This document shows, in pieces, positions 12,001-18,000 of a DNA stretch of 64,000 nucleotides; the first letter of the stretch is position 1, and each line of letters opens with the position of its first letter. The position numbers are program-made. The stretch is from assembly GCF_056712565.1 (NCBI RefSeq), contig NZ_CM160072.1; one strand, written 5' to 3'.

Positions 12001-15000
12001 CAGCGGGGAATATCAGGTGCTGGCGCGATGGGACACACCGAAGGTGGTGAAGGGCGTGAGCTTCCTGCTCCGTCTGACCGTAACAGCGGACGACGGCAGT
12101 GAGCGACTGGTCAGCACGGCCCGGACGACGGAAACCACATACCGCTTCACGCAACTGGCGCTGGGGAACTACAGGCTGACAGTCCGGGCGGTAAATGCCC
12201 GGGGGCAGCAGGGCGATCCGGCGTCGGTATCGTTCCGGATTGCCGCACCGGCAGCACCGTCGAGGATTGAGCTGACGCCGGGCTATTTTCAGATAACCGC
12301 CACGCCGCATCTTGCGGTTTATGATCCGACGGTACAGTTTGAGTTCTGGTTCTCGGAAAAGCGGATTACCGATATCAGGCAGGTTGAAACCACAGCCCGC
12401 TATCTTGGTACGGCGCTGTACTGGATAGCCGCCAGTATCAATATCAAACCGGGCCATGATTATTATTTTTACGTTCGCAGTGTGAACACCGTTGGCAAAT
12501 CGGCATTCGTGGAGGCTGTCGGTCGGGCGAGCGATGATGCGGAAGGTTACCTGGATTTTTTCAAAGGAGAAATCGGGAAAACACATCTGGCCCAGGAGTT
12601 GTGGACGCAGATTGATAACGGTCAGCTTGCGCCGGACCTGGCTGAAATCAGGACGTCCATTACGAATGTCAGCAATGAAATCACGCAGACCGTCAATAAA
12701 AAACTGGAAGACCAGAGTGCGGCAATCCAGCAGATACAGAAAGTTCAGGTTGATACAAATAATAACCTGAACAGCATGTGGGCCGTGAAACTGCAGCAGA
12801 TGAAGGACGGACGCCTTTATATTGCGGGTATTGGTGCCGGTGTTGAGAATACTCCTGACGGTATGCAGAGTCAGGTGCTGCTGGCGGCGGACAGGATTGC
12901 GATGATTAATCCTGCGAATGGCAACACAAAGCCGATGTTTGTTGGGCAGGGCGATCAGATATTCATGAACGAAGTGTTCCTGAAATATCTGACGGCTCCC
13001 ACCATTACCAGCGGTGGCAATCCCCCAACGTTTTCACTGACACCTGATGGTCGACTTTCTGCGAAAAATGCGGATATCAGCGGTAACGTGAACGCGAACT
13101 CCGGGACGCTCAACAACGTCACGATTAATCAGAACTGTCGGATTCTGGGAAAACTGTCAGCTAACCAGATTGAAGGTGATATTGTCAAAACGGTGGGAAA
13201 AGCCTTTCCGAGAAATGGCAGTTATGCCAGCGGTACAATAACGGTCACTGTGTACGATGACCAGGCTTTTGACCGTCAGATAGTAGTCCCCCCCGTTCTG
13301 TTTCGTGGGGGTAAGCATGAAAACTTCAACAGCAACAACCAACAGTCATACTGGTATTCAACCTGTAAGCTGCAGGTACTGAAGAACGGACAGGAAATCT
13401 TTCAGCAACCCGCGACGGATGTCAGCAGGGTATTTTCATCAGTCATTGATATGCCTGCCGGACACGGCCATGTCACCCTGACTTTCAATGTTTCTTCATA
13501 TGGTGCTAATAACTGGACGCCAACGACCAGTATCAGCGACCTTCTTGTTGTTGTGATGAAGAAATCTACAGCCGGTATCAGTATCAGTTGAATTTTATAA
13601 CCCAGATACGGGCGCCAGAAATGGCGCCTTTTTTATTTGTGGAGTGAATATGGCAGTACAGATTTCAGGCGTGCTGAAAGACGGTGCAGGAAAACCGATA
13701 CAGAACTGCACCATTCAGCTCAAAGCAAAACGTAACAGCACCACGGTTGTGGTGAACACGGTGGCCTCAGAAAATCCGGATGAAGCCGGACGTTACAGCA
13801 TGGATGTCGAGTATGGCCAGTACAGCGTTATCCTGCTGGTTGAAGGTTTTCCGCCTTCACATGCCGGGGCCATCACCGTGTATGAGGATTCTAAGCCGGG
13901 GACATTGAATGATTTTCTGGGCGCTGCAACAGAAGATGATGTTCGTCCGGAGGCACTGTATCGTTTTGAAAAGATGGTGGAAGAGGTGGCACGCAACGCT
14001 GAAGCCGCCTCTCAGAGCGCAGCGGCAGCAAAGAAATCAGAAACAGCAGCGGCATCGTCCAGGAATGCGGCGAAAACATCAGAGACGAATGCAGGTAACA
14101 GCGCGAAAGCGGCAGCTTCTTCAAAAACAGCCGCACAAAACGCAGCAACAGCGGCAGAACGTTCAGAGACAAATGCCCGTGCGTCAGAAGAAGCCTCCGC
14201 AGACAGTGAAGAGGCTTCCCGCCGTAATGCAGAGTCAGCCGCTGAAAATGCCGGAGTCGCCACCACAAAAGCGCGGGAGGCCGCAGCAGACGCAACAAAG
14301 GCCGGGCAGAAAAAGGATGAGGCTCTGTCGGCAGCGACACGGGCTGAAAAGGCGGCAGACCGCGCAGAAGTCGCAGCGGAAGTGACTGCAGAGCCCTATG
14401 CGAATATAGTGCCGCCGCTGCCTGATGTGTGGATACCGTTTAACGATTCACTGGATATGATTGCGGGTTTTTCTCCGGGCTATAAAAAAATAGCTATTGG
14501 TGACGATGTGGTTCAGGTCGCCAGTGATAAACAGGTTAATTTCAGTCGCGCATCAACGGCAACATATATCAACAAATCTGGCGAACTGAAAACGGCGGAA
14601 ATTAATGAGCCGCGATTTGAGTGTGATGGCCTGCTTATTGAGGGACAAAGAACGAACTACATGCTCAATTCGGAAAGTCCAGCCAGCTGGGGGAAGTCAT
14701 CAAACATGGATGTGCCCGAAACCGGGACAGATAGTTTTGGTTTTACTTATGGAAAGTTTGTCTGCAACGATTCTCTGGTTGGGCAAACTTCGGCTATTAA
14801 TATGGCATCAATTGCTGCAACAAAGTCAGTTGATGTCTCAGGCGATAACAAGTACGTGACAACCTCATGCCGTTTTAAAACAGAACGACAGGTAAGGTTA
14901 CGTATACGGTTTGATAAGTATGATGGTAGTGCAACAACTTTTCTTGGCGATGCGTACATTGATACGCAAACGCTTGAAATTAATATGACAGGTGGGGCTG

Positions 15001-18000
15001 CCGGCAGAATTACGGCACGAGTCAGGAAGGATAAGACCACAGGCTGGATTTTTGCAGAGGCAACGATTCAGGCAATTGATGGTGAGTTAAAAATAGGCTC
15101 TCAGATACAGTATTCTCCTGAGCGGGGTGGGGCAACAGTATCTGGTGACTATATTTATCTTGCCACCCCACAAGTAGAGAATGGGCCGTGTGTATCATCA
15201 TTTATTATTTCAGGAGGCAGCGCAACGACAAGAGCCAGTGATTTGGTTAGTATCCCCACCAGAAATAATCTTTATAAGTTACCATTTACTTTTTTACTTG
15301 AGATTCATAAAAACTGGGATATTGCACCAAACGCCGCACCCCGCGTGTGGGATATAGCAGCAGCCAATACCGGGCAATCAGCAATTGCAGCAATCAACAG
15401 AGGTAGTGGTAAGTTATATATGAGTCTGTCAAACCCTTCAGGCTTGTATGTTAATAGCGCAGCGACAGATGTATTTGCAGAGAAAACCACATTTGGATGT
15501 ATTGCAAAAGCTGATGGTCACTTTCATGTGGTGACAAATGGTAAAGCGGTTAATGAAGTTTATTGTGAATATAATGGTGTGACCGCTGATAAAAATATCC
15601 GATTTGGAGGGCAGACGAATACTGGAGAACGACATCTGTTTGGCCATATTCGCAATTTCCGCATATGGCATAAAGAATTAAATGACAGGCAATTAAAAGA
15701 GGTCGTATGAAAGATTTAACTTTGAAGTTTCATGACAAACTGCAGTTTAAGGCCTTCCTGTCATCTCTTGACTGGGAGGAGGATGAAGACTTCCAGAATA
15801 AACTGTTAGTCGATGAAATTGGTTTCACCTACACAGAAACAGGGGTAACAGAAGAGGGAGAACCTGTCTGTGTCCGGAATGACGGTTATTTTGTCAACAT
15901 TCGCATTCTTGATGACTTGTTTGATGTTTCTGTATTCTCTGATTATGTCGTGGAGCTGGAAACACCGCTTCGGGAATGGAGCTGAAAGGAGGAAATAATG
16001 GATATAAGCCCCTTACTTCATGCGCTTTGTGCTGTGGCTGCGCAGATACTGGTTGGTCTTTTTACCGGAAACTGGGCTTACGGAGCGATAGCCGGTTGTA
16101 CGTTCTTCATTGCGCGTGAACATACCCAGGCAGAATATCGCTGGATTGAAATGTTCGGGCATGGCAAGCGAATGAATATGCCGTGGTGGGGCGGTTTTGA
16201 TCCGCGAGCTTGGGATGTGGCAAGCCTGATGGATTTTGCTGTGCCGGTGGTGGCGTGTCTGCTGGTCTGGCTGTTGGTTAATCGTGGGTGAAAAAAGGTG
16301 AGCTGTATATGCAACGGAGGAAGAAACCCCGTTGCTGGAAGCCAGGAAAAAGTATCGGGTGTTGCTGTCCTCGGATGTTGTGCTAATTGGGTGATAACAG
16401 ATCCTGTGTATGGGAGTTTCCCTTTTTGCGTGCGTTGATGCTGGTAACGGCAAACGTCATGATGAACAAAACCGCGAATAAGACGACAATCGTCGGAGCT
16501 GGTGCGCTGTCGATAAAAAAGGACAACCAGACACCAGTCATTGACACTATTACCGATATGCCAGTCGCCAGTAGGAGCGCAATATGAAAGCGTTGTGTCA
16601 GGAGTACCGCAATGGCGCCAGGCGCAATGAGCAGAGAAATGGAGAGAATGATACCTACCGCTTTCAGCGTCGCCACAATGGTCAGAGAGACCATGCACAG
16701 CAGCCCATAATGCAGCCATCTCGTATGCAAACCGCTTACCTGCGCCTGTTGATAATCAAAGCTGAACAGCAAAAAATCCCGCCATTTTACGCTAATAACA
16801 AGTGTAACCAGCCCGGCAATAATCATCGTCTGGATTATATCGCCGATGGTTATCCCGAGCATGTCGCCGAAAAGAATATGGTCAAGATGTACGTCTGGTT
16901 TGACTGCAATATACAAGATCAGACCTGCGGCAAACATGCCAGAAAAAACAATCCCCATCACTGTATCTTGCTTGATTCGGCTGTTGTCTTTCAGGTATCC
17001 CGTCGCCACCGCGCAGAATACTCCGGCGACGAATGCCCCTGTAGCCAAAGGTAACCCCAGAATCCAGGCAAGCACGATTCCAGGAAAAACCGCATGACTC
17101 ATCGCGTCACCCATCAGTGCCCAACCTTTCAGGACCAGAAAGACCGACAGCAGCGCACAGGGTATGGAAACTACCAGTGAAATCAGCAGTGCGTGACTCA
17201 TAAAGGTGAACTGCAGTGGCTCCAGTAATAATGCCATCATGAGCGATCCTCCAGCGCCTTATGCGCACGCCGACGATTTGCCAAAAGCCCATGGGTGGGC
17301 GCAAAGACAAATGCTAAAAGAAACAGCAGTGTCTGCGCCACCACGATGATTCCACCTGTCGCGCCGTCCAGAAAGTAACTGACCCACGCGCCGAGGAAAC
17401 TAGTTACACTGCCAATAGTTACAGCAATCATGAGCAGGCGGGGAAAACGATCGGTTAACAACCATGCTGTTGCACCGGGAGTCACCACCAGACAGATCAC
17501 CAGAAAGGCACCAACCGTTTGCAGCGCCGCAACGGTCGAAACCGACAGCAGGGTGAAGAAGATGAGTTTTAATCTGCCCGGATGCAATCCAATAGCACGG
17601 GCGTGATTCTCGTCGAAAAAGGTCACCATAAGATCTTTCCATTTGAAAAAAAGCACGATGATCGAGAGAATGCCAATGATAGTGAGTTGCAGGATATCCG
17701 CCGGATCGATTGCCAGAATATTGCCCAGGACGATGGTCTGAATGTTCACAGATGTCGGGTTCAATGACACCATAAACAGCCCCAGGCCAAAAAAGGACGA
17801 GAAGATCAGACCGATGATGGCATCTTCTTTTAAGCGGGTGCGTTGGTTAAGAAACAGCATGCTGCCCGCAGCCAGTCCGCCGGAAAAGAAGGCTCCCAGA
17901 GAAAACGGAAGCCCCAGCATATATGCCCCCGCAACACCCGGGACAATAGAGTGCGACAACGCATCGCCAATCAGCGACCAGCCTTTTAGCATCAGATAGC

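Follow-up and report, generated by a model that had tools for sequence, protein, structure and literature searches.

A predicted two-domain concanavalin-A-like tip, acquired as a cassette, on the side tail fibre of a phage-21-type prophage

Fibre ends and their chaperone genes are exchanged horizontally among lambdoid, P2-like and T-even phages. In lambda (stf-tfa), P2 (H-G), T4 (gp37-gp38) and Mu (S-U), the exchanged unit comprises the receptor-binding end of the fibre and a downstream partner; engineered lambda-P2 chimeras of the side tail fibre (Stf) function on the same principle, and mosaicism of this kind is used in engineering. The Stf of Ur-lambda (orf-401/orf-314; PDB 9E7M) is an accessory adsorption fibre that acts beside the central fibre J; a ring of twelve collar domains at the gpV/gpM junction gives rise to four trimeric fibres, and Stf residues 102-393 form a proximal trimeric coiled coil (PMC12617516). 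Here we analyse the stf gene of a lambdoid prophage of the phage 21 type, inserted at the isocitrate dehydrogenase gene icd and carried on a stretch of 64,000 nucleotides (nt), hereafter the window, from contig NZ_CM160072.1 of NCBI RefSeq assembly GCF_056712565.1. This gene encodes the prophage's side tail fibre, in which a collar of lambda type and what appears to be a shortened lambda-type shaft are followed by a C-terminal part of a different class, predicted with high confidence to consist of a short neck and two concanavalin-A-like (ConA-like) beta-sandwich domains. The gene has already been catalogued, being annotated in phage 21 as its side tail fibre, and is a real case of host-recognition module swapping: over all 2061 bases its sequence shows 100% identity to CPT_21_22, the 'side tail fiber' of Escherichia phage 21 (UMO75437.1; OL657228; PMC9119081), so that chance resemblance is not an issue. 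The gene and the parts of its product lie in the window as follows.

13650..15710, plus strand: stf, side tail fibre gene, intact, 686 codons plus stop (from the list of open reading frames; 100% nt identity to phage 21 CPT_21_22)
13650..13931, plus strand: collar (tail-attachment) domain of lambda Stf type, residues 1-94 (identity to lambda orf-401, match to PDB 9e7m_Ta, PF08400)
13953..14399, plus strand: Ala/Glu/Ser/Thr-rich shaft, residues 102-250, a putative trimeric coiled coil (composition, alignment to lambda orf-401 repeats)
14400..14534, plus strand: neck with junction motif PPLPDVWIPFNDSLDM, residues 251-295 (family alignment of 34 sequences)
14535..15245, plus strand: domain A, a predicted beta-sandwich of the GTA head-spike-fibre family (ConA-like fold), residues ~296-532
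15246..15707, plus strand: domain B, a predicted Laminin_G_3/pentraxin-like beta-sandwich, residues ~533-686 (PF13385, profile matches)

An earlier note on this DNA had claimed that the first ~120 residues closely follow lambda Stf, and our comparisons bear this out. Identity to lambda orf-401 (the Stf N-terminus) is 88.3% over residues 1-94 and 84.2% over residues 1-120, Pfam PF08400 covers residues 1-131 (E 1e-68; 230 bits against a cut-off of 26.6), and the Ur-lambda Stf collar, PDB 9e7m_Ta, matches residues 1-94 with an E value of 1.4e-49. Within a tail operon of lambda type, the gene immediately follows J, which encodes the central fibre, as befits a member of the lambdoid Stf family, to which the fibre can be assigned by its collar domain and gene position. 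Homology to the solved structure of Ur-lambda Stf shows residues 1-94 to be the collar, which secures the fibre to the tail tip at its gpV/gpM junction; the arrangement of twelve collars and four trimers may carry over to phage 21, and the window fibre would likewise serve as an accessory adsorption fibre beside J.

The shaft was described in the same note as Ala/Ser/Glu-rich and of low complexity. The composition is as described, with 36% Ala in residues 115-250, followed by Glu, Ser and Thr, but low complexity is not the whole account of this segment: it aligns to the repeats of lambda orf-401 in several registers with identities of 31-49%, and we infer that it is a shortened version of the lambda proximal coiled coil, about half its length. 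Tandem Repeats Finder (TRF) found no tandem repeats in the DNA encoding the shaft, the repetitiveness being confined to amino-acid composition. Residues ~102-250 would thus form a trimeric alpha-helical shaft that presents the lectin-fold domains. Direct comparison with Ur-lambda Stf shows 88% identity in the collar and an Ala-rich, presumably coiled-coil shaft whose repeats are of one type in both; at the same time, the window fibre has a shaft of roughly half the length and lacks the hinge, the distal gp37-like coiled coil, the OmpC-binding tip and tfa.

The similarity to lambda ends with the shaft. Residues 250-686 showed no similarity to lambda orf-314 or Tfa in blastp searches (best E 1.4, over 30 residues). 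A tip of the lambda/T4 type was considered and rejected, with no match to orf-314 and no gp37-type chain in PDB sequence and profile searches or among the listed fold matches; the tip is therefore not a member of the lambda/T4 gp37 class, and the C-terminus, examined specifically for an alignment with the tip of lambda Stf or of T4 gp37, gave none. The C-terminal peptide quoted in the earlier note is present in the protein. The note had read this end of the chain as a lectin domain of LamG/concanavalin type; the fold class stands, whereas the number of domains does not, as domain searches and structure prediction of the C-terminal part gave two ConA-like domains rather than one, with Laminin_G_3 confined to the last ~150 residues. 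An AlphaFold2 model of the C-terminal part, built as a monomer from an alignment of 34 diverse relatives, is all-beta (mean pLDDT 91.8, pTM 0.87) and shows the curved two-sheet beta-sandwich (jelly-roll) of the ConA-like superfamily. Fold searches with this model returned the Pa193 baseplate protein gp46 (score 17.9), the sialic-acid-binding carbohydrate-binding module CBM40 of NanA (15.8), and laminin LG domains and pentraxins (14-15), with the carbohydrate-binding modules AbnA domain 4 and CBM40 named as the best fold matches. Foldseek recovered the same classes and aligned pairs of LG domains in tandem, as well as the proteins of Pa193 and E217, with nearly the whole model.

The two domains have different relatives. 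For the tip as a whole, 2889 relatives were found at E <= 0.001 among 1.84 billion representative proteins. Domain A matches the NCBIfam family NF048003 'GTA_spike_fiber' with 55.3 bits (cut-off 36; residues 329-529, model positions 1-181 of 182), and its family profile finds the Rhodobacter capsulatus GTA head spike fibre Rcc01080 with E 4e-39, the tail fibre gp17 (PDB 9OCC) with E 4e-19, and E217 gp45 and Pa193 gp46 with E ~5e-15. This family has already been recorded as widespread in phage tail proteins (PMC5026251). Homology to Rcc01080 (GhsB; NF048003; PDB 6TB9 chain F3) extends over ~235 residues and includes the shared framework motifs STATY...NEPRFE...GLLxExxxTN and QxExG...S.IPT...TRAxD. 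Rcc01080 differs from the window fibre in its attachment: it is a single-copy fibre of 325 amino acids (aa), joined by a leucine-repeat peptide to the pentameric head spike base and experimentally resolved at residues 2-10 only (PMC7296036), whereas the window protein is probably a trimeric tail fibre. Sequence identity to the tip is 12-15% for E217 gp45 (8ENV_K), Pa193 gp46 (9B45) and gp17 of PDB 9OCC; in Pa193 the domain belongs to a wedge (triplex) protein of the baseplate by which the tail fibre is anchored, with no receptor role reported. For domain B, Laminin_G_3 (PF13385) scored 23.9-25.1 bits on residues 560-681, under the gathering cut-off of 27.6 bits; 27 of the 34 family members match it at E <= 0.01 (best E 6.4e-12). 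Over its positions 263-428, the family profile also found an S-layer domain protein (E 3e-5), the HcN domain of botulinum neurotoxin (BoNT) type D (E 1e-4) and C-reactive protein (E 3e-3). An origin of A and B as internal duplicates was tried and rejected, with an hhalign probability below 1% between the sub-alignments; the two share a fold class without a detectable sequence relationship.

The same note had suggested that the C-terminus is a swapped host-range module. This idea gains support, and the exchanged unit proves to run past the stop codon of stf into two small open reading frames (ORFs).

14409..16293, plus strand: exchangeable cassette of tip (residues ~254-686), 92-aa ORF and 97-aa ORF (blastn against locus L004)
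15707..15985, plus strand: acidic ORF of 92 aa (isoelectric point 4.1), its start overlapping the stf stop (ATGA)
15998..16291, plus strand: predicted membrane protein of 97 aa, with a strong Shine-Dalgarno sequence (phrog_1443; two transmembrane domains in the phage 21 annotation)

The clearest view of the cassette comes from L004, a P2-like prophage locus, to which window positions 14409..16293 align as one ungapped blastn match of 1885 nt with 87.6% identity. The match starts at the junction motif PPLPDVWIPF and stops at the stop codon of the 97-aa ORF, so the unit that moved between siphovirus and myovirus is the tip together with the two downstream genes. In L004 a chimeric fibre gene stands in the place of gene H, behind Tail_P2_I, and is followed by the 92-aa and 97-aa ORFs and then by a 74-aa Caudo_TAP fragment. 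This fragment (L004 7612..7836) lies just beyond the inserted cassette and is apparently a relic of the P2 chaperone gene (gene G) that stood there before the replacement. Other relatives carry the tip on a P2 gpH-type tail-collar N-terminus (PF12571; P0087, P0122 and P0141), on PF03406-type fibres (P0104 and P0107) or on much longer fibres (P0125, 1247 aa). The join always falls at PPLPDVWIPFNDSLDM, which follows three unrelated N-terminal scaffolds, and residues P6, P8, W11 and P13 of the module are invariant or nearly so in the 34-sequence family alignment. Judged from these alignments, the tip evidently arrived by recombination, as a cassette with the two small downstream genes.

All three cassette ORFs are under purifying selection between the window and L004 copies, the ratio of nonsynonymous to synonymous substitution rates (dN/dS) being 0.17 for the fibre, 0.32 for the 92-aa ORF and 0.17 for the 97-aa ORF. 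Mosaicism was also seen within the tip. For example, one relative is 92% identical in the variable core of domain A and 33% identical in that of domain B, and another shows 48% (domain A) and 62% (domain B) in the variable cores; the framework segments remain conserved. On these identities, the variable cores of domains A and B appear to be exchanged independently among relatives, and the conserved framework segments could act as recombination anchors.

In each of the four other contexts examined, the ORF that immediately follows the fibre gene is a homologue of the 92-aa ORF, and L007 keeps it even though its tip is only 34% identical.

L004: ORF of 92 aa, 89% identity to the window 92-aa ORF
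L009: ORF of 92 aa, 48% identity
L007: ORF of 76 aa, 37% identity
L006: ORF of 88 aa, 28% identity (E 3e-13)

The 97-aa ORF is less constant: it accompanies the cassette here, in phage 21 and in L004 (80% identical), and is absent after the small ORF in L006, L007 and L009. Neither ORF matched a Pfam or NCBIfam family or showed similarity to lambda Tfa, and no Caudo_TAP (PF02413) assembly gene was found downstream of stf. Because its position, translational coupling and co-inheritance mirror those of the partners in stf-tfa, H-G and gp37-gp38, the most economical inference is that the 92-aa protein may be the tip's dedicated assembly partner, in place of the absent Tfa-type chaperone. The window cassette thus resembles the lambda, P2, T4 and Mu systems in exchanging a receptor-binding end together with a downstream partner, but its tip is ConA-like where theirs is a gp37-type needle, and its partner, unlike their chaperones, is an acidic alpha/beta protein of 76-92 aa without a Caudo_TAP match. 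Going further, and only tentatively, such 76-92-aa acidic proteins might constitute a tail-fibre assembly factor of a new kind, or else a subunit that stays in the tip, dedicated in either case to two-domain tips of the ConA-like class and without relation to Tfa, gp38 or gpG. If this were true, the tip-plus-partner cassette could be moved between siphovirus and myovirus fibres in order to retarget phages or delivery particles to the surface glycans of extraintestinal pathogenic E. coli (ExPEC).

In two of the compared loci the fibre and the small ORF are followed by a second fibre-like gene: another Laminin_G_3 protein at 5587..7251 in L007, and a Gp34_trimer protein accompanied by a Caudo_TAP gene at 5844..7358 in L009. 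This arrangement suggests branched or multiple fibres at those loci.

As to function, we propose, with a probability of roughly 0.7, that the lectin-fold tip reversibly binds surface polysaccharide and so speeds adsorption before J engages LamB. The ligand would be the O-antigen or core of lipopolysaccharide (LPS), or capsule; reversible binding would tether the virion while the central fibre J finds LamB, upon which DNA ejection would be triggered. We favour a polysaccharide ligand because a domain A homologue binds capsule, because the fold matches carbohydrate-binding modules, and because other lambdoid Stf proteins provide glycan precedents. Rcc01080 has been found by experiment to bind capsular polysaccharide (PMC10218006; PMC7296036), the lambdoid Stf of Gifsy-1 binds a sugar of the LPS core (PMC12312913), and Ur-lambda Stf helps to overcome the O16 O-antigen (PMC11990801), while phage 21 J uses LamB (bioRxiv 10.1101/2024.04.15.589635). 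Several points weigh against this proposal. The class of ligand is read from the fold and one distant homologue, and ConA-like, LG and BoNT-Hc folds bind proteins too; the model of the tip is that of a monomer. Since phage 21 can form plaques on rough K-12 by way of LamB, its Stf might not be needed on such hosts, as is the case for lambda PaPa. For the 92-aa protein, the proposed function as a chaperone is based only on position, translational coupling and co-inheritance, and a model of this protein had no informative structural relative.

The readiness of these folds to bind proteins raises the question of whether the two-domain tip recognizes a protein receptor, for example a porin, as lambda Stf binds OmpC, and not a glycan. 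Laminin LG/neurexin domains and BoNT Hc (which binds SV2 and synaptotagmin) belong to the same fold class and are all among the fold matches, and OmpC is used by both lambda Stf and T4 gp37 (PMC12617516). At the same time, the sole domain A homologue studied by experiment binds capsule polysaccharide, and the best fold matches are the carbohydrate-binding modules AbnA domain 4 and CBM40. The hosts, moreover, are smooth and often encapsulated ExPEC strains, and in such strains outer-membrane proteins are shielded; a protein receptor is therefore unlikely in our view. We consider it more improbable still that the tip is an enzyme (a glycanase, lyase or esterase of the ConA-like lectin/glucanase superfamily) that degrades or modifies surface polysaccharide in the manner of a tailspike depolymerase, since the top fold matches are all non-catalytic binding domains, the invariant residues sit in framework strands shared with the binder Rcc01080 and outside the variable cores, and no catalytic family was matched in Pfam or NCBIfam.

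The least probable account, to which we give very little credence, is that the fibre is a non-functional passenger, poorly expressed or assembled without a Tfa-type chaperone and kept by linkage to the prophage. It draws on the fact that lambda PaPa lives without Stf, on the lack of a Caudo_TAP gene after stf in the window, and on the terminator-like hairpin ahead of stf (13610..13639). Against this account, late transcription in lambdoid phages is Q-antiterminated; hundreds of genomes, and free phages as well, carry the ORF intact and in identical form, its dN/dS against the diverged myovirus copy is 0.17, and a conserved small partner ORF adjoins the fibre gene in every context examined. Reversible glycan binding by a working fibre thus remains the reading that we prefer.

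The start of the gene and its immediate neighbourhood agree with phage 21. The stf ORF begins with an ATG at 13650, preceded at a distance of 5 nt by a GGAG ribosome-binding site, and ends with the stop codon at 15708-15710; the GTG at 13644, two codons before this ATG and taken as the start by the ORF finder, differs from the start in the phage 21 record. Promoter-like sites within stf were fewer than in shuffled sequence and hence not meaningful. Upstream lie two further features.

10109..13591, plus strand: J, 1160 codons, carrying the full set of Pfam domains of gpJ, the tip attachment protein of lambda
13610..13639, plus strand: GC-rich hairpin followed by a T-run, terminator-like, between J and stf (consensus scan; annotated as a terminator in phage 21)

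Gene order is H-M-L-K-I-J-stf, the same as in phage 21, whose neighbours of stf match those in the window (J before; the 92-aa ORF, the 97-aa ORF and sitDCBA after). The ~14 kb around stf are 98.9% identical to phage 21, and stf itself is without difference, the window copy being part of a prophage in an ExPEC-like chromosome. The stf of phage ev017 is also 100% identical, that of several further lambdoid coliphages is 98-99.9% identical, and the whole Stf protein matches phrog_1419 'tail protein' with E = 0. At a gene coverage of at least 80%, stf is common in E. coli, with a copy in 575 out of 5426 complete genomes; many of the carriers are extraintestinal pathogenic strains, among them NU14, ATCC 25922, APEC O18 and DSM 30083.

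Between the fibre cassette and the end of the prophage lies sitDCBA, an iron/manganese ABC transporter operon (16383..19832, minus strand), which within a prophage is a virulence-associated phage cargo and is arranged likewise in phage 21. A partial copy of icd at ~21746..21913 is annotated at the matching coordinates in the near-identical NU14 chromosome; this copy, near 21.7-21.9 kb, represents attR, the end of a prophage inserted in icd in the manner of phage 21. The window overall is 99.6-99.96% identical to the NU14 chromosome; positions 25836..27715 are the sole long stretch in its first 51 kb without an NU14 alignment, and NU14 has an IS1A copy there.

Annotation and literature have treated this gene unevenly. 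RefSeq/PGAP often breaks this intact ORF of 686 codons into two features, an N-terminal pseudogene ('missing C-terminus') and a 'phage head spike fiber domain-containing protein'. The split is seen at 6001-6364 and 6808-8061 in L002 and at 13650-14013 and 13986-15710 in L010, all corresponding to window 13650..15710, and the annotated internal start varies among genomes despite DNA that is 100% identical to the window and free of frameshifts. The phage 21 genome announcement does not discuss the fibre, the preprint on phage 21 receptor evolution (bioRxiv 10.1101/2024.04.15.589635) treats only J and LamB/OmpC/OmpF, and a literature search on phage 21 together with the side tail fibre and sitABCD gave no result.

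The practical value of these results is modest, and the current view of tail fibre mosaicism is unchanged. Since the tip occurs naturally on fibres of both lambda and P2 type with a precise junction (PPLPDVWIPF), it offers a ready part for delivery particles based on lambda or P2. For the biology of these prophages, knowledge of the receptor of the phage 21 fibre would explain the spread of sitABCD-carrying phage-21-like prophages among smooth, encapsulated pathogens.

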